Below are positions 8,848 through 18,531 of a stretch of 64,000 bases of DNA, piece by piece (position 1 is the stretch's first letter; each line of letters opens with the position of its first letter). Source of the stretch: Escherichia phage DCP2; the sequence record OR780565.1; one strand, written 5' to 3'. The position numbers and the translations under genes are program-made. The notes beneath the pieces are model-generated. The model was not told the origin of the DNA. It saw only the letters and a list, made by a program, of their open reading frames with translations, and did not search any database.

Positions 8848-9162
8848 ATGGAGGTAATGATGTTATACTCAAAGGCTCGTGAAATTTACGAAACTAAAAT
8901 TAAAGAAGCAGTATTTCAATTCGCAACGACAATGCGATGGACAAATGACTGGGAGTATTCAAAAAATCATAAGAAGCCCATGGTGACAAGAAAGGCTCAT
9001 ATGTTAGTGTTAATAGACCGTGAGCAGATTAAAGCCCGAGAAGCCCTCCAGAATCACAAAAAGGCTGCCTTTGAATGGTTTATGGATAACACTGCTCCTG
9101 AGACCAAGAAAGCGGTAAGTGCATGGTTCAGTGGAAAAAATTGTGAAAGAAGTTTCTTTTAG
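8848..9162 (+). CDS. Hypothetical protein, about 104 aa
   Basis: Three in-frame ATGs near SD ggagg (8848, 8857, 8860); exact start uncertain. Confidence 0.5.
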   Translation: MEVMMLYSKAREIYETKIKEAVFQFATTMRWTNDWEYSKNHKKPMVTRKAHMLVLIDREQIKAREALQNHKKAAFEWFMDNTAPETKKAVSAWFSGKNCERSFF

Positions 9163-9164
9163 TG

Positions 9165-9196
9165 GTTTACAAGACTGTTCCTCTGTGGTATTATTA
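9165..9196 (+). promoter_or_regulatory. T4-type early promoter
   Basis: GTTTAC then ctgtggtattattaccctatc; near-identical copy at 61323. Confidence 0.65.
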
Positions 9197-9227
9197 CCCT
9201 ATCAACTACGGAGGAACAGAAAATGAA
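9165..9227 (+). repeat. 62-bp promoter plus leader repeat (second copy at 61323..61385)
   Basis: Three mismatches over about 62 bp including SD ggaggaacagaaaATG. Confidence 0.8.
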
Positions 9228-9750
9228 CGCTAAAGATATTTTCAACTTAGTAAATTATAACGATGGTAAATTTAAATCTGAAGCACAAAGCAAGTTCTTT
9301 AATGACATCTCAATCGGAGGTGAAATCACGGTTGATGGAGGACAAATTTACAAATCCCGTTGGAATTGGATCGTTATTATCGATGAGATTGGTATTGTAG
9401 AAATTTACAAGAATACGAATAAAAATCGTACATTACACTGGTCTCGTGATACTAATGAACAGTACAAAAAGGATAAAGCATCTAAATTATCTCGTGTAAC
9501 TCAAGAAGATATTGAGTTCATCAAGAAAGATATTTTGATGTATGATAACTTAATTGCTGAAGAGCAAGCTGTTATTGATAAATTTGATGAGATTAAAGCT
9601 TCTCGTGAAATTCCTGATTTTATGAAAGAATCAGTAAATGAACGATACACTCTCATTTCAGAGCGTATTGAAACTTACAAAAAGCAAAGAGCTGAACGCC
9701 AAAATACTCTTCGGAAGTTTGAAGAACGGTTAAAGACGGTACTCGCATAA
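9223..9750 (+). CDS. Hypothetical protein, 175 aa
   Basis: ATG with SD ggagg directly after the early promoter. Confidence 0.6.
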   Translation: MNAKDIFNLVNYNDGKFKSEAQSKFFNDISIGGEITVDGGQIYKSRWNWIVIIDEIGIVEIYKNTNKNRTLHWSRDTNEQYKKDKASKLSRVTQEDIEFIKKDILMYDNLIAEEQAVIDKFDEIKASREIPDFMKESVNERYTLISERIETYKKQRAERQNTLRKFEERLKTVLA

Positions 9751-9805
9751 CCGCTTTATACCAAGGATGGTATAATGGTTCTAAGCCCTTTTAATTGAGA
9801 TTATT

Positions 9806-10210
9806 ATGAAACAGTTGATAATTAAAAGATTGAATTTATTGATATGTTGTTTATGTATAATAATTGCATATGGTTATTATGCTATTAATGATTATATGCA
9901 TTATAAAGATTATGATGTTACTGTAGTTAATACCTTTACAGGAACTCAAGGAAAGGGGTCTAGTTTATCGTTTATTGCTGTATATGAACTCAAAGACGGT
10001 TATAGATTTAGTGAATATATTTCCCCAGAGATGTATTCTTCAATAGAAAAAGGTGATAATATTACTGTAAGTTTACGTCCTTTCGACGTAAAACAGACAT
10101 TGTTTGATAATATTGTTTGGTTCTTTGGAATGGTATTAGTTCAATCTGTGTGTGGTGCTTATATAGTCTGTTCCATCTTATTCTGTATATTTAGTAAAAT
10201 TGAAAATTGA
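9806..10210 (+). CDS. Hypothetical membrane protein, 134 aa
   Basis: N- and C-terminal hydrophobic segments. Confidence 0.55.
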   Translation: MKQLIIKRLNLLICCLCIIIAYGYYAINDYMHYKDYDVTVVNTFTGTQGKGSSLSFIAVYELKDGYRFSEYISPEMYSSIEKGDNITVSLRPFDVKQTLFDNIVWFFGMVLVQSVCGAYIVCSILFCIFSKIEN

Positions 10211-10221
10211 GTGAGGAAAAT

Positions 10222-11109
10222 ATGTCAGTAGTAATTAATAATGTCAATGCAGTAATTAAATCTTTAGTTAATAAAAAATTAAATGAATGGACTGTACTTC
10301 GTCGTGGAGAGCCAGATAAATTTTTTCATAGATTTAACCCAACTTTGGATTTGAATGTTATTGACAGAGATGTTCATGCTGAAATTTTAGATAAATTTAA
10401 AGTTGATATTGGGTTTGGATTAGATAAACATTTGCAACGAACAAACGGATCTGGAATGGGTTTATCTAATCGCATCATGAAAGCCCTTAATAAAATTGGA
10501 GCGTTGTCTCGTATTAATGCGAGTGAAATCCTTCGCAATTATAATAAAGGATATGACCTTTATGGTCGACTAATGCCGAAATTATCATTTGACCAAATGA
10601 TTGCGGATTTGTGGGAAAATCAACGACGATTATTAGCATTAGGCGCTCGATTAGCTAAAGGTCTAGATAAACAAATGATTTTTAAGACCAATAATACAGA
10701 AGACCTTAAATGCTTTAAATTTAGTACTCGTGGAGATGATTATTACATCAGAGCTCGCTCTACAGATTATGTTAATATGGGGCATCATCTCTGTTTAGCT
10801 TTTGAAGTTTTAAAAGAAGCCGGAACATTAGAATATGTGTCTGGTGCTAAATGTCCGATTGGTTCAAATTGCATTTTAATTTATCGCCCAGATGAATCCA
10901 GTTCAACTAAATTACCTACAAAACCTGTACCAGTTCGCAGTAATGAAAAACATTCTGAACAAATTGCTTATTTTAATAAGCAGATTGAAGAGCTAAATAT
11001 TTCTATTCAGCAATATGATGATGAAATTTTCAGACTATCTGGATTGAGTAGTAAAGCTAAATCTGAGCGTGAAAAATTAATTAAAATCGTTGATTTACTT
11101 AAATCTTAA
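10222..11109 (+). CDS. Hypothetical protein with C-terminal coiled coil (tandem paralog 1 of 4), 295 aa
   Basis: ATG with SD gaggaaaat; C-terminal heptad-like region. Confidence 0.6.
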   Translation: MSVVINNVNAVIKSLVNKKLNEWTVLRRGEPDKFFHRFNPTLDLNVIDRDVHAEILDKFKVDIGFGLDKHLQRTNGSGMGLSNRIMKALNKIGALSRINASEILRNYNKGYDLYGRLMPKLSFDQMIADLWENQRRLLALGARLAKGLDKQMIFKTNNTEDLKCFKFSTRGDDYYIRARSTDYVNMGHHLCLAFEVLKEAGTLEYVSGAKCPIGSNCILIYRPDESSSTKLPTKPVPVRSNEKHSEQIAYFNKQIEELNISIQQYDDEIFRLSGLSSKAKSEREKLIKIVDLLKS

Positions 11110-11117
11110 GGAACACC

Positions 11118-12146
11118 ATGAAAACTCGTTCTCAAATTGAAGATATGGTTCGTAATGCCAGCTATACTCGTGATGTTATGACATTTTTGTGTGAAAATAA
11201 TTTAGACCCTGATAAAGTTAATCGTGTTATTCATCACTTTAAGTATACGAATAGCAGTGAATGGGTGCGTAATTTTAGTAAAGCAGGGTATATTACGCAA
11301 ATGACGGCTCGTGAGCAGCTCACCGATTTCTGTAAAACTATTGATTATAAAAATCCTTTGATTGTTCAAGGCGTTGGTCAAAGTAAGGTCGATTTATCAT
11401 CTGGATTTTTCAATCCAAATCATTATCGTATTGAATGGAGATTTATTGCTCTGTTCCGTAGACAATTAAAGCAAATTTTATCAACTGCGAGTCGATTAAA
11501 AGGTTCTGATATTAACTTAAAGAATCTGAAATTTGATGGTTATACTCTTCAGATGGAAGTAAGACCGTTAAAAGAAAATAATAGAACTGCACGAATTAGC
11601 TTTAAGCCTAATACTAAAAATTCTCTTTCAATTTGTGAATGTCTTAAATCACAGCTGACAGAAGCATTTAAGTATATGGATGTTGTTGCTGCTGTTCAAT
11701 CTAAGATTTTACCTCGTTTTGAGCGAAATTGGGAACATACAACAACATATGAACTTGATATGATCGTTTCATTTAAATATGAATTTTTGAGAAAGGATGA
11801 AATTGTTCAAGAGAAAAAGCAGGAAGTGCAAGATACCTTAAATTTAAATTTATCCAATTACTTATCAAACGATCCTAAATGTTGGATGTACAGTTCAAGT
11901 AACATAGATGCATGTAAACTTAATAAAGTGAGTTTTCTTCCTACTGAAAATTCAAATTTTAAACCTGTAGAAAAATGGCACGCTGATGCGATTGAAAAGT
12001 CTCTTAAGGCAGTAGATGATGAACTCGTTAAAGCGACCAATGAAATGCTAGAAGCTGAAAAGGCGTTAGAACAAGCTCAGTCAAGGGTTCAAAATCTGAC
12101 AAAGCAACGTTCTAAACTGAACAATGCACTAAATGCACTGAACTAG
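11118..12146 (+). CDS. Hypothetical protein with C-terminal coiled coil (paralog 2 of 4), 342 aa
   Basis: SD aagga; C-terminal coiled-coil-like segment ending NALNALN. Confidence 0.6.
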   Translation: MKTRSQIEDMVRNASYTRDVMTFLCENNLDPDKVNRVIHHFKYTNSSEWVRNFSKAGYITQMTAREQLTDFCKTIDYKNPLIVQGVGQSKVDLSSGFFNPNHYRIEWRFIALFRRQLKQILSTASRLKGSDINLKNLKFDGYTLQMEVRPLKENNRTARISFKPNTKNSLSICECLKSQLTEAFKYMDVVAAVQSKILPRFERNWEHTTTYELDMIVSFKYEFLRKDEIVQEKKQEVQDTLNLNLSNYLSNDPKCWMYSSSNIDACKLNKVSFLPTENSNFKPVEKWHADAIEKSLKAVDDELVKATNEMLEAEKALEQAQSRVQNLTKQRSKLNNALNALN

Positions 12147-12177
12147 TTTACTTTACCACAAGGATGTGGTATAATGT
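12146..12177 (+). promoter_or_regulatory. T4-type early promoter
   Basis: GTTTAC then ggatgtggtataatg; same 32-bp element recurs at 56535. Confidence 0.65.
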
Positions 12178-12203
12178 TCTTACTTTCTACTGAGGAGATT
12201 AAT

Positions 12204-13205
12204 ATGACTCGTAACGAATATATCAAATCATTCAATAGTGTTATTGATGATAAAGTTAAACCTATGTCTAGTCAGAATAGCGTTATTTCCATTATCAATC
12301 AATGGCTCAATAATATTGATGTAAGCATTGTTTCTTCCAGCAAATTTATTCATGAAGTTCATAAAATTTCTAGTCGCGAAGATAAAGATGATATTAAGGA
12401 AACCTTTAAAGGTTCTCGTCTTCTTTCATATTTAGTTAATCAGGATATTCTTGGTAAATTTGGGAAAGAAATTAAACGAACTAAAGATGTAGTAGGATAT
12501 AATTGGTTCGGTGATGTTAATTCTTATCATCTTAATAATAAAGAAGACCCTGAGAATATTTTTACTCGTCGTTGGATTAGTAATTTCAGACTTTTCAAAG
12601 GACAGATTCTAAAATCAGCTTCTAAATTATGTTATGGCGATTATCGTCAAATTCATCCTTTGGCTTCTGATATGATTATCATAAAAGAATATGAACTTGA
12701 TAAAAATAAAGTATCTATTTTTGTGAATTATGGATTTTTTACACCAGAAACTAACCAAAAGAATATTAATAAATTTTTCTCAATTGCTAGCACTATAACT
12801 CGTCAATTAGAGACCGCATTACTTTGTATGGAAACAGTAGAAAATATTCATACATATCCTTTTAAGAATATATGCGGTTGGGAAGGATATAAACTCGTAA
12901 TTAGCCTTCGTGAAGTGAAATGTGCTTATTCACCTACTGATAAAGAAATTTACCAACAAAAATGTGATGAAATTGTGAATACTCCTAAAGAAGAAACTAC
13001 CCTTGAGGAACTAATGGAATGTCTTGATGATTCACCTGAACCGATAGAAATTCGTCCAGAAGTTATTGCATTAGAAAAAGCTTATAAAGAAGCTCTAGAA
13101 ATTTCTAATAAAGCGCAGAAAGAATATGAACAGGCTAAAAGGATTTGGGAAGAATCTGTTAATCGCCTGGATCGTCTTGAACAAGCTTTACAGTTAATTA
13201 AGTAA
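12204..13205 (+). CDS. Hypothetical protein with C-terminal coiled coil (paralog 3 of 4), 333 aa
   Basis: ATG with SD gaggag; the tracked start at 12174 lies inside the promoter -10. Confidence 0.6.
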   Translation: MTRNEYIKSFNSVIDDKVKPMSSQNSVISIINQWLNNIDVSIVSSSKFIHEVHKISSREDKDDIKETFKGSRLLSYLVNQDILGKFGKEIKRTKDVVGYNWFGDVNSYHLNNKEDPENIFTRRWISNFRLFKGQILKSASKLCYGDYRQIHPLASDMIIIKEYELDKNKVSIFVNYGFFTPETNQKNINKFFSIASTITRQLETALLCMETVENIHTYPFKNICGWEGYKLVISLREVKCAYSPTDKEIYQQKCDEIVNTPKEETTLEELMECLDDSPEPIEIRPEVIALEKAYKEALEISNKAQKEYEQAKRIWEESVNRLDRLEQALQLIK

Positions 13206-13257
13206 TTTAAAGCCAAGGATGGCTCGGAGTATAAATCATTAACCAAGTGAGAAGAAC

Positions 13258-14187
13258 ATGAAAACTCGTAAACATTATATTGATTATTTTGATAGTCTTA
13301 TTACTAAACACCGTAATTATCAGATTGGGCACAGAGCAGTAATCAATAATATTCTTCGTGATTTCTTTCAATATGTTGGCCAGGAAAATCATATCTGTAA
13401 AGATACTCAAAACGCTTATTCTCATTCGTTAGGCAATTTGCTTCAATGGTTTAAACGTTCTCGTCTGTTATCTTCTACTGTAGCTAGTGATAACATTAAA
13501 AACTTTATGAAGCCGAGCTTCATTAAATCTGCGACATCTATAACCGATTTGGTTGAATTTACTATTGTTAACGATGTTAAAAAGACCCATTTGGCTGATT
13601 GGTTATCTACCATTCCTGAAACTAAATTTGCTGATAAATTCGCTTGTCAATTCAATGACCAAGTGAATATGCTTTTTAAGCATGCTCGTAAACTATTTAC
13701 CGCGGGCGATGACCGTACAAATACAGTTCATGTTAAGGACTGGGTTATTGCTGATGAAGTAACACACAAGCCAGGTGGTTCATCAGTATTAATTAATATC
13801 CAGGTTCCTTATTATTACTCACGTAATCTCGGCACCATGACAGCTAGAGAAATTAATAAGCATAACAAAACTATTCGTTCGTTGTCTTATAAACTCTGCA
13901 CGATGGTGGAGATGATGGACGTAGTGGAAATGTATGACGAAACCGAAGATAATGGTTCAATGTTATACAGTTCACGCATTCTAATTAAACTGAAGAACCC
14001 TAATACATATAAGCCAGTTGTAAAAGAACCTAAAGTAGAAAAGATTGATAACTTGCGCGAAGAACGTGAATATCTCAATGCTCGTTTGATTGAAGTTGAA
14101 GTCCAGATTGCCGAACATACCAAATTGTTAAAAGCTCTTAATGCAAAAGCAAATGGTTTACGTAATGCTATTGAGGTATTGAAATGA
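13258..14187 (+). CDS. Hypothetical protein with C-terminal coiled coil (paralog 4 of 4), 309 aa
   Basis: SD gtgagaag; C-terminal coiled-coil-like region. Confidence 0.6.
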   Translation: MKTRKHYIDYFDSLITKHRNYQIGHRAVINNILRDFFQYVGQENHICKDTQNAYSHSLGNLLQWFKRSRLLSSTVASDNIKNFMKPSFIKSATSITDLVEFTIVNDVKKTHLADWLSTIPETKFADKFACQFNDQVNMLFKHARKLFTAGDDRTNTVHVKDWVIADEVTHKPGGSSVLINIQVPYYYSRNLGTMTAREINKHNKTIRSLSYKLCTMVEMMDVVEMYDETEDNGSMLYSSRILIKLKNPNTYKPVVKEPKVEKIDNLREEREYLNARLIEVEVQIAEHTKLLKALNAKANGLRNAIEVLK

Positions 14188-14501
14188 AAAAGCGTCTATT
14201 AGAAGATATTGCAGCTTCAAGTAATTCCAGTCTAATTAAAATCATTATGGCTGGTGAAGAAGACGATCTGGAAATGCGTGGAAAGATTCATGGCTGTGAC
14301 GATCTAGACTTTAAACCTCCTGCTTGGGATGCCATTATGGTTATGGTTGAACGCCGCGAAAGGGCTTCTAAGAATGTTCCGAACTGCCCAAAATGTGGTA
14401 CTGAACAGGTCCAATTGATTAACTGGCGTAAACCAGAGCTTGAATATAAATGTCGTCATTGCAAACACCGATTTAACCGAGAAGAAAATGACCAAGCGTA
14501 A
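14184..14501 (+). CDS. Zinc-ribbon protein, 105 aa
   Basis: ATGA overlap; CPKCG ... CRHCKH Cys4 pair. Confidence 0.55.
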
Positions 14502-14730
14502 AGAATATATGGAGGCTGCTGAAAAGGCAGTCCGTGAATTAGCAATAGCTTATTATAATGAACATGGTAAATTTCCTGATAGATACAGCGTGCTTAAATC
14601 TGCTTTAACTCGTTCATATAAAAATATGCTATCAGAAGTAAGTGATATTATATACAAACATAAAGAACAAACGGGCCAAAGTCTTGATTACGACGAGACT
14701 TTTAAACAAGTACTAGGAATTAAGGAATAA
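14488..14730 (+). CDS. Hypothetical protein, about 80 aa
   Basis: ATG overlapping the 3' end of the upstream gene; start uncertain (alternatives 14440, 14509). Confidence 0.45.
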
Positions 14731-16243: not shown

Positions 16244-16717
16244 ATGTTATTGACTGGCAAATTATATAAAGAAGAAAAACAGAAATTTTATGATGCGCAA
16301 AACGGTAAATGCTTAATTTGCCAACGAGAACTAAATCCTGATGTTCAAGCTAATCATCTTGATCATGACCATGAATTAAATGGACCAAAAGCAGGAAAGG
16401 TACGTGGATTGCTTTGTAATCTATGCAATGCCGCAGAAGGTCAAATGAAGCATAAATTTAATCGTTCTGGCTTAAAGGGACAAGGTGTTGATTATCTTGA
16501 ATGGTTAGAAAATTTACTTACTTATTTAAAATCCGATTACACCCAAAATAATATTCACCCTAACTTTGTTGGAGATAAATCAAAGGAATTTTCTCGTTTA
16601 GGAAAAGAGGAAATGATGGCCGAGATGCTTCAAAGAGGATTTGAATATAATGAATCTGACACTAAAACACAATTAATAGCTTCATTTAAGAAGCAGCTTA
16701 GAAAGAGTTTAAAATGA
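16244..16717 (+). CDS. 49: Endonuclease VII (Holliday junction resolvase)
   Basis: 157 aa; Cys/His zinc site and HLDHDH; matches T4 gp49 as recalled. Confidence 0.95.
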   Translation: MLLTGKLYKEEKQKFYDAQNGKCLICQRELNPDVQANHLDHDHELNGPKAGKVRGLLCNLCNAAEGQMKHKFNRSGLKGQGVDYLEWLENLLTYLKSDYTQNNIHPNFVGDKSKEFSRLGKEEMMAEMLQRGFEYNESDTKTQLIASFKKQLRKSLK

Positions 16718-18531
16718 CAATTGAAAAAGAAATTGAAGGATTGATTCATAAAACTAATAAAGACCTTTTGAACGAGAATGCTAATAAAGATTCTCGTGTT
16801 TTTCCAACTCAACGGGACCTTATGGCTGGTATTGTGTCTAAACACATTGCCAAAAATATGGTCCCGTCTTTTATTATGAAAGCGCATGAAAGCGGAATTA
16901 TTCATTTTCATGATATTGATTATTCCCCTGCTCTTCCATTTACTAATTGCTGTTTAGTAGATTTAAAAGGAATGCTTGAGAACGGATTTAAGCTTGGTAA
17001 TGCGCAGATTGAAACTCCTAAATCAATTGGCGTTGCTACTGCAATTATGGCACAAATTACTGCGCAAGTTGCTTCCCATCAATATGGCGGAACGACTTTT
17101 GCTAATGTAGATAAAGTACTTTCTCCTTATGTTAAACGCACCTATGCAAAACATATTGAGGATGCAGAAAAATGGCAAATCGCTGATGCGTTGAATTACG
17201 CCCAGTCTAAAACAGAAAAAGACGTATACGATGCATTTCAAGCTTATGAATATGAAGTAAACACTCTCTTTAGTTCAAACGGACAAACGCCTTTTGTAAC
17301 AATTACATTTGGTACGGGAACTGACTGGACTGAACGAATGATTCAGAAAGCAATTCTGAAAAATCGTATTAAAGGTCTTGGTCGTGATGGGATAACTCCT
17401 ATTTTCCCTAAGCTTGTTATGTTCGTTGAAGAAGGTGTTAATCTTTATAAAGACGATCCGAACTATGATATTAAGCAGCTTGCTCTAGAGTGTGCAAGCA
17501 AAAGGATGTATCCTGATATTATTTCAGCTAAGAACAATAAAGCTATCACCGGCTCATCTATTCCTGTTTCTCCAATGGGTTGCCGCAGTTTCTTGAGCGC
17601 GTGGAAAGATTCAACCGGTAATGAAATTCTTGATGGACGTAATAATCTTGGTGTTGTAACACTGAATCTTCCTCGTATTGCGTTGGATTCTTATATTGGA
17701 ACACAGTTCAATGAACAGAAATTTACTGAATTGTTCAATGAGCGAATGGATTTATGTTTTGAAGCTTTGATGTGTAGAATTAGTTCCTTAAAAGGAGTTA
17801 AAGCGACTGTTGCTCCTATTCTTTACCAAGAAGGTGCATTCGGGGTTCGTCTTAAACCTGATGACGACATAATTGAGTTATTTAAAAACGGTAGAAGTTC
17901 AGTGTCTTTAGGATACATTGGTATTCATGAATTGAATATTCTTGTCGGTCGTGATATTGGACAAGAAATTTTAACTAAAATGAATGCTCGTCTTAAACAG
18001 TGGGCTGAAAGAACTGGGTTTGCTTTTAGTTTGTATTCGACTCCTGCTGAAAACCTTTGTTATCGCTTCTGTAAACTTGATACAAAAAAATATGGAAGTG
18101 TAAAAGATGTTACCGATAAAGGATGGTACACTAACAGTTTCCATGTTTCAGTAGAAGAAAATATTACTCCGTTTGAAAAGATTTCTCGCGAAGCCCCATA
18201 TCATTTCATTGCGACAGGTGGTCACATTTCTTATGTTGAACTTCCTGATATGAAAAATAACCTAAAAGGTCTTGAGGCTGTCTGGGATTATGCTGCACAA
18301 CATTTAGATTATTTTGGTGTTAACATGCCAGTAGATAAATGTTTTACGTGTGGAAGTACCCATGAAATGACTCCTACTGAAAACGGGTTTGTTTGTTCTA
18401 TTTGTGGAGAAACTGATCCTAAAAAGATGAACACAATAAGAAGAACTTGTGGTTATTTGGGAAATCCGAACGAACGTGGATTTAATCTCGGCAAAAATAA
18501 AGAAATCATGCATAGGGTTAAACACCAATGA
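16714..18531 (+). CDS. nrdD: Anaerobic ribonucleoside-triphosphate reductase, uninterrupted
   Basis: 605 aa; C-terminal glycyl radical motif RRTCGY and CxxC...CxxC zinc site; single continuous ORF. Confidence 0.95.
   Translation: MTIEKEIEGLIHKTNKDLLNENANKDSRVFPTQRDLMAGIVSKHIAKNMVPSFIMKAHESGIIHFHDIDYSPALPFTNCCLVDLKGMLENGFKLGNAQIETPKSIGVATAIMAQITAQVASHQYGGTTFANVDKVLSPYVKRTYAKHIEDAEKWQIADALNYAQSKTEKDVYDAFQAYEYEVNTLFSSNGQTPFVTITFGTGTDWTERMIQKAILKNRIKGLGRDGITPIFPKLVMFVEEGVNLYKDDPNYDIKQLALECASKRMYPDIISAKNNKAITGSSIPVSPMGCRSFLSAWKDSTGNEILDGRNNLGVVTLNLPRIALDSYIGTQFNEQKFTELFNERMDLCFEALMCRISSLKGVKATVAPILYQEGAFGVRLKPDDDIIELFKNGRSSVSLGYIGIHELNILVGRDIGQEILTKMNARLKQWAERTGFAFSLYSTPAENLCYRFCKLDTKKYGSVKDVTDKGWYTNSFHVSVEENITPFEKISREAPYHFIATGGHISYVELPDMKNNLKGLEAVWDYAAQHLDYFGVNMPVDKCFTCGSTHEMTPTENGFVCSICGETDPKKMNTIRRTCGYLGNPNERGFNLGKNKEIMHRVKHQ

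Follow-up and report, generated by a model that had tools for sequence, protein, structure and literature searches.

Four adjacent genes of Escherichia phage DCP2 (sequence record OR780565.1), the orthologs of nrdC.6, nrdC.5, nrdC.4 and nrdC.3 of phage T4, were analyzed in a 64,000-nucleotide stretch of its DNA, hereafter the window. Judged by their sequence profiles, the four products are full-length tandem paralogs, very old duplicates of one gene. I favor, with a probability of about 0.55, the reading that the four genes are a tandem array of counter-defence proteins belonging to one protein family of T4-like phages; such a function has been published for NrdC.5 and is proposed here for the other three. 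The genes and this one function were already known; what is new here is the link into a superfamily, with the predictions drawn from it. A preliminary description of the locus had pointed out four open reading frames (ORFs) of similar size, and all of them are present, at 295-342 amino acids (aa). It saw a real feature and the right general biology, while its account of the architecture was partly supported: the architecture is that of a whole-length paralog family.

The functional evidence comes from T4. According to Srikant et al. (eLife 2022, PMC9391042), an evolved T4 clone with compensatory deletions was unable to infect E. coli ECOR17, and infection was regained on disrupting the host gene dsr1, which encodes a SIR2-domain defence. 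In the same study, T4 nrdC.5 alone, supplied from a plasmid, restored plating of the T4 deletion mutant on MG1655 with dsr1. The NrdC.5 ortholog of the window (positions 11118-12146) is 94% identical to that of T4, with the same length and the same neighbors, and this copy would act against Dsr1 in the same way. The remaining three ORFs are related to it only remotely, as paralogs of less than 20% identity to NrdC.5 in which the domain order is kept. Since nrdC.5 switches off Dsr1 and the four genes share a family, nrdC.3, nrdC.4 and nrdC.6 are candidates for the same kind of job. The host-takeover or exclusion-type role suggested by the preliminary description thus stands as far as one member, T4 nrdC.5, has a published host-interaction role, against Dsr1 (PMC9391042). 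A search of the literature on nrdC.3, nrdC.4 and nrdC.6, on the Pfam names and on other anti-Dsr1 work gave nothing beyond that paper.

Relatedness of the four proteins

Pairwise BLASTP proved too insensitive as a test of relatedness: it joined NrdC.4 and NrdC.3 only (expectation value (E) 3e-6, N-terminal 226 residues), the other five of the six pairs being non-significant. Family alignments were built from a large protein database and compared profile to profile with hhalign. NrdC.4 and NrdC.3 match with a probability of 98% (E 1e-14), and NrdC.5 and NrdC.4 with a probability of 83% (E 8.5e-6) over 251 colinear columns. The score of the latter pair is 47, compared with 16 ± 2.8 for shuffled columns and 18 for the reversed control (z about 11), and NrdC.5 matches the combined NrdC.4 and NrdC.3 profile at 95% (E 4e-8). 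For NrdC.6, the matches to each single family are marginal (E 0.01-0.04). Against the merged profile of NrdC.5, NrdC.4 and NrdC.3, it reaches a probability of 62-72% (E 3.5e-5 to 1e-4, z about 12), and against a superfamily profile enlarged by seven distant members, 92-93% (E 3e-7 to 6e-7). The score in this last comparison is 53-55, while shuffled columns give 13.3 ± 2.2 with a maximum of 20.3. One distant member, the single sequence P0269, matches all four family profiles (E 5e-5 to 6e-4). The earlier suggestion of one family is borne out by these profile-profile comparisons, including that of NrdC.6 with the superfamily (E 3e-7), and the similarity among the four goes beyond generic helical propensity, far above the controls. 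No additional paralog was found elsewhere within the 64-kb window.

When the proteins were cut, the homology signal was located in the N-terminal and central part (NrdC.5 versus NrdC.4, E 7e-6; NrdC.4 versus NrdC.3, E 3e-15), while the last 60 residues by themselves gave hhalign E values of 1e-3 to 0.17. The preliminary description had proposed a common C-terminal module on divergent N-terminal parts. A shared C-terminal module as the basis of relatedness found no support, the comparisons of the last 60 residues being weak. The divergence of the N-terminal two thirds holds at the BLAST level, where NrdC.4 and NrdC.3 alone are significant, but the profiles detect homology there. Four common motifs were recognized by eye. 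Two of them, 'F+.SRLLS...L..F' and 'ILKSASKL..GD' (in general form 'IL+.A.+L..GD'), lie in two conserved helix pairs of the N-terminal helical domain; the NrdC.6 counterpart of 'F+.SRLLS' is 'GALSRINA', and that of the second motif is 'LLALGARLAKGLD'. The third is 'AL..M..VE', and the fourth, at the extreme C-terminal end, is given below.

Each of the four ORFs falls cleanly into one known family (Pfam PF26897, PF26899 and PF23882; PHROGs 1435, 2257 and 2351). Pfam and PHROGs keep the four proteins in three separate families, with NrdC.4 and NrdC.3 sharing phrog_1435, whereas they are joined into one superfamily here. NrdC.5 scores 402 bits over its full length to DUF7235 (E 2.4e-120; Pfam gathering threshold, 30 bits), and the DUF7235 model has no match to NrdC.6, NrdC.4 or NrdC.3. 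Among precomputed matches, PF26897 (Phage_T4_Y04OP) is found on close homologs of NrdC.4 and NrdC.3, and PF26899 on those of NrdC.6.

Predicted fold and the C-terminal helix

AlphaFold2 models were available for NrdC.6 and NrdC.5, with predicted local distance difference test (pLDDT) values of 78 and 69, respectively. The elements follow one another in the same order in both models: first a helical domain at the N-terminus, then a beta-beta-alpha-beta-beta unit (hairpin, helix, hairpin), a disordered linker and finally a long helix. The linker has 15 residues in NrdC.6 and 60 in NrdC.5, and the differences of NrdC.5 from the T4 copy concentrate in it. Of the folded parts, the beta-beta-alpha-beta-beta unit is conserved least, with 27-42% identity in distant orthologs. 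In Foldseek searches against predicted viral structures, full-length matches were obtained solely to uncharacterised proteins of 300-375 aa from T4-like phages, whose hosts include Erwinia, Klebsiella, Serratia, Acinetobacter, Pectobacterium, Yersinia and Enterobacter. Two uncharacterised Straboviridae proteins, A0A2S1GM98 and A0A2Z4QAR2, are matched over their full length by both models (E 2e-6 to 3e-4). Template modelling scores (TM-scores) in the fold comparison are low (0.3-0.5) because the orientation of the domains is flexible. No solved structure or known domain matching the family was found, and profile searches of the PDB that started from the family alignments brought up no chain related to defence. 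Weak Foldseek matches (E at least 0.01) between tail-completion proteins and the beta unit of NrdC.5 were taken as noise.

At the C-terminus of each of the four proteins lies a helix of about 50 residues with a heptad pattern, covered by the AlphaFold2 models in NrdC.6 and NrdC.5. The heptad score used here is a home-made heuristic distinct from COILS and MARCOIL, which looks for hydrophobic residues at positions a and d and polar or charged residues elsewhere. Among 80 plus-strand ORFs of at least 80 aa each, the top scores in the last 42 residues are those of NrdC.5 (19.8), NrdC.8 (18.8), NrdC.4 (18.1) and NrdC.3 (17.5), and most of the remaining ORFs score below 13. NrdC.6 scores 14.0 in its last 42 residues, but a stretch that stops 22 residues short of the C-terminus reaches 17.4. 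When the last 60 residues of each of the four proteins were shuffled 1000 times, the observed scores were matched in 0.1-2.7% of the shuffles. Hydrophobic residues recur with a dominant period of 3.4-3.5 in NrdC.6, NrdC.5 and NrdC.4 and of 3.0 in NrdC.3; in the NrdC.5 helix, the 3-4 hydrophobic spacing can be followed by eye without a break for about 50 residues. Thus, the heptad-rich C-terminal ends of the preliminary description are real, as judged by the scores and shuffles for all four proteins and by the modelled helices for NrdC.6 and NrdC.5.

What the C-terminal helices have in common is limited to their heptad pattern and a short motif at the end, '[QE]R.KL..A[LI]..L[KN]'. This motif occurs in 4 of the 127 ORFs of the window, exactly the four, and in six of ten distant members outside the set that defined it. 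The helix is also the best conserved part in every ortholog group: its identity in distant orthologs is 62-82% for NrdC.6, NrdC.4 and NrdC.3, and 48% for NrdC.5, for which two distant sequences only were compared.

Similar helices were seen in two other proteins. NrdC.8 (window 9223-9750, 175 aa), second in C-terminal score, has a strong heptad-like helix at its end as well. It was ruled out as a shortened fifth member, having no profile similarity to the four (E > 0.04). A 173-aa ORF, P0268 (L009 120-641), combines an unrelated N-terminal part of 110 residues with a C-terminal helix nearly identical to that of NrdC.5. If a true swap, it would be direct evidence that modules are exchanged, but it was not relied on, as it comes from one 803-nucleotide (nt) metagenome contig that may be an assembly chimera.

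Distribution, variants and surroundings of the array

In a HMMER search of 1.84 billion representative proteins, the profile of NrdC.5, NrdC.4 and NrdC.3 gave 22 matches only. The family is rare and was found only in T4-like phages (Straboviridae). Its genomic slot is constant wherever the context is available, between nrdC.9/nrdC.8 and nrdC.2/nrdC, and holds one, three or four copies across T4-like phages. One copy is found in distant T4-like contigs, where 272-aa and 241-aa neighbors of the single copy proved unrelated to the family. Three copies (NrdC.6, an NrdC.5-like gene and NrdC.4) are found in Gaprivervirus and Dhakavirus, whose loci lack NrdC.3. Four are found in Tequatrovirus, NrdC.3 being an extra duplicate of NrdC.4.

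The ratio of nonsynonymous to synonymous substitution rates (dN/dS) was obtained from five to seven Tequatrovirus loci. It is 0.11-0.30 for the four genes and 0.01-0.06 for NrdC.10, NrdC.9, NrdC.8, NrdC.1, NrdC and gp49; two further neighbors are also fast (NrdC.7, 0.35; NrdC.2, 0.20). The four genes change more quickly than most neighbors, yet under purifying selection. They had been called diversifying in the preliminary description. Because dN/dS is below 1, the word holds loosely, in the sense of fast divergence only.

Several natural variants of the array were found. In the T4 reference (NC_000866, 12008-12894), nrdC.6 has a 1-nt deletion at about codon 259, compared with the window and most relatives. 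Therefore, the annotated protein of 275 aa lacks the final 36 residues of its heptad helix, although 97% conservation of the lost C-terminal sequence persists in the other frame. In P0161 (contigs of up to 167 kb), which corresponds to about 11556-14187 of the window, a deletion has removed all of NrdC.4 and left a fused reading frame that passes from the middle of NrdC.5 into the C-terminal half of NrdC.3. The junction lies at non-homologous positions. About 83 residues, comprising the beta unit and the linker, are duplicated in tandem within the NrdC.6 protein of Shigella phage Sf25 (P0001, 378 aa). In Shigella phage SP18 (L008 4956-5860), the NrdC.5-like gene is split into two ORFs, while it is intact (293 aa) in the related UPEC07; the split probably reflects either a pseudogene or a sequencing error.

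The window comes from a genome of the T4-like genus Tequatrovirus. In megablast, 659 phage records match the 4.7 kb around the four genes, the best of them being about 95-97% identical across the entire 4.7 kb and Tequatrovirus records about 95%. The order nrdC.6, nrdC.5, nrdC.4, nrdC.3 is identical to the T4 annotation, between nrdC.7/nrdC.8 and nrdC.2/nrdC. All four ORFs, on the plus strand, start with ATG and have a GAGG-type ribosome-binding site upstream, and the gaps between them are, in order, 8, 57 and 52 nt (Table 1). The identity to the T4 protein is 97% for NrdC.6 (residues 1-258) and 94% for NrdC.4. For NrdC.3, it is only 61%, while the flanking genes reach 94-99%. Two deep allele types of NrdC.3 and NrdC.2 (window 13258-14501) were seen among Tequatroviruses, with about 61-62% protein identity and a synonymous divergence (dS) of 0.6-0.8. 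This pattern, with genes 94-99% identical on either side, suggests that the NrdC.3-NrdC.2 segment is a mosaic exchanged by recombination.

Table 1. Positions of the four genes, their C-terminal helices and a promoter-like site in the window
Feature	Position	Strand	Remarks
NrdC.6 ortholog, 295 aa	10222..11109	+	phrog_2257, E 3e-152; most divergent superfamily member
NrdC.6 heptad helix, residues 242-295	10945..11106	+	AlphaFold2 helices 242-271 and 277-294; score 17.4, 0.9% of shuffles
NrdC.5 ortholog, 342 aa	11118..12146	+	Pfam DUF7235/PF23882; PHROG 2351
NrdC.5 heptad helix, residues 286-342	11973..12143	+	AlphaFold2 helix 286-341; score 20.6, 0.1% of shuffles, period 3.5
Promoter-like site of T4 early type, GTTTAC...TGGTATAAT	12147..12175	+	consensus match only; directly upstream of NrdC.4
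NrdC.4 ortholog, 333 aa	12204..13205	+	phrog_1435, E 1e-166
NrdC.4 heptad segment, residues ~284-333	13053..13202	+	boundaries from NrdC.5 alignment; score 18.1, 2% of shuffles, period 3.5
NrdC.3 ortholog, 309 aa	13258..14187	+	phrog_1435, E 9e-115; NrdC.4 duplicate found in Tequatrovirus
NrdC.3 heptad segment, residues ~263-309	14044..14184	+	boundaries from alignment; score 17.9, 2.7% of shuffles

The promoter-like site upstream of NrdC.4 has 10 of 12 consensus matches and a TG extension, found in a consensus scan and confirmed by eye. Ahead of NrdC.7 (window 9751-9776), a MotA-box-like CGCTTTA lies 12 nt upstream of TATAAT. This pattern suggests a T4 middle promoter, so that both middle and early transcription may run into the array.

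The ORFs nrdC.1-nrdC.10 (window 8848-14730) are often called 'thioredoxin' in phage records and 'hypothetical' in others. No thioredoxin domain was found in any of the four proteins, and the label arose because the nrdC name spread through annotations. Further downstream, the nrdD gene for the anaerobic ribonucleotide reductase (window 16714-18531, 605 aa) is uninterrupted, and the context of a mobC-type homing endonuclease apparently differs from that in T4. The nrdD gene of T4 carries a group I intron with I-TevII.

A proposed counter-defence role and the alternatives

How might such proteins work? NrdC.6, NrdC.4 and NrdC.3 would be early-expressed proteins of the same kind as NrdC.5, each tuned to a different host defence protein or to a variant of one. 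The globular part, especially the fast-changing beta-beta-alpha-beta-beta unit, may contact the target, and the conserved C-terminal helix may make a dimer or a higher oligomer, with a gain in avidity against defence proteins that are themselves oligomeric. Direct binding of NrdC.5 to Dsr1 is a working model borrowed from DSAD1, an inhibitor from phage SPbeta that acts, reportedly by direct binding, on DSR2, a SIR2-domain defence that depletes NAD+. DSAD1 is likewise a phage protein neutralising a SIR2-domain defence. The likeness is an analogy of function only, as DSAD1 is a much smaller and unrelated protein of a Bacillus phage. A wider version of the idea, put forward tentatively, is that nrdC.3-nrdC.6 may be an expandable array of cassettes. 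Each would have a target-binding globular head on a coiled-coil stalk and disarm a different immune protein (for example, sensors of the SIR2/NADase type), and the copy number (one, three or four) would track the defence repertoire of the hosts.

The T-even internal proteins IPI, IPII and IPIII are a family that shares a short capsid-targeting signal at the N-terminus, and the virion carries them as packaged proteins. In contrast, the common feature of NrdC.3-NrdC.6 would be a whole fold with the C-terminal helix, and nothing suggests packaging. The internal proteins and the dmd-tifA-adfA 'anti-TA island' (TA, toxin-antitoxin) of T4 (PMC9391042) are likewise clustered, non-essential and fast-changing accessory genes, each of which beats a particular host defence.

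A number of points weigh against the reading of the four genes as a counter-defence array. An experimental function exists for NrdC.5 alone, and paralogy is no proof that the others share it. In PMC9391042, moreover, the evidence for nrdC.5 is genetic suppression and not binding. The link of NrdC.6 to the rest covers only about 90 aligned residues. The profiles are of low diversity, the effective number of sequences (Neff) being 1.6-2.8 for the families and 5.5 for the enlarged profile, and the HMMER profile of NrdC.5, NrdC.4 and NrdC.3 retrieved no NrdC.6 homologs from the 1.84 billion representatives at E ≤ 1e-3. The structural models are of moderate confidence, cover NrdC.6 and NrdC.5 only and were compared through their order of elements and common Foldseek matches, and the coiled-coil call rests on a heuristic score. 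dN/dS is below 1 wherever it was measured. Finally, the frameshift of T4 nrdC.6 is either a mutation of the lab strain, which would make this copy dispensable, or an error of the reference sequence.

Three other explanations were considered. The four genes may be paralogs of which NrdC.5 alone acts in counter-defence, the other three having drifted to unrelated early accessory roles or being redundant or decaying. Natural losses fit this explanation, as copies are damaged by the T4 nrdC.6 frameshift, the nrdC.5-nrdC.3 fusion without nrdC.4 and the split NrdC.5-like gene of SP18, and the searched literature reports no function for nrdC.3, nrdC.4 or nrdC.6. I nevertheless regard it as rather unlikely: the four ORFs are intact in most of several hundred Tequatrovirus records, purifying selection acts on all of them (dN/dS 0.11-0.30), and a conserved C-terminal helix of its own is retained in each ortholog line. 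Less probable still is that the four proteins are subunits of one hetero-oligomer, joined through their C-terminal helices and acting together. A long exposed amphipathic helix is found in all four, the adjacent genes are probably co-expressed, and the helices, different from paralog to paralog, are conserved inside a given line, which is what specific pairing would produce. However, related phages have one or three copies, and plasmid-borne nrdC.5 alone rescued the deletion phage, the available text (PMC9391042) containing no statement on whether the paralogs were also deleted.

The last explanation, that four unrelated genes of similar size happen to share a generic helical and charged C-terminal sequence, is hardly credible and is already largely refuted. 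It would account for the five non-significant BLASTP pairs, for the three separate Pfam and PHROGs families and for the heptad-like helix of the unrelated neighbor NrdC.8. It does not agree with profile scores far above the shuffled-column and reversed controls, with the colinear alignments, the common order of secondary structure and the Foldseek matches common to both models, or with P0269, which bridges all four families. Nor does it agree with the end motif, given its restriction to exactly these 4 of 127 ORFs in the window and its presence in six of ten distant members.

The gain from the counter-defence reading is incremental. If the wider idea of a cassette array is true, its scaffold would be a new inhibitor architecture, because no relative of the fold was detected among solved structures. 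To probe how NrdC.5 stops the SIR2 defence, the parts to mutate are the variable beta unit and the conserved helix. T4 is the best-studied phage, and yet no function is known for about half of its genes. Among them, nrdC.3, nrdC.4 and nrdC.6 are turned from anonymous ORFs into specific counter-defence candidates that can be tested cheaply.

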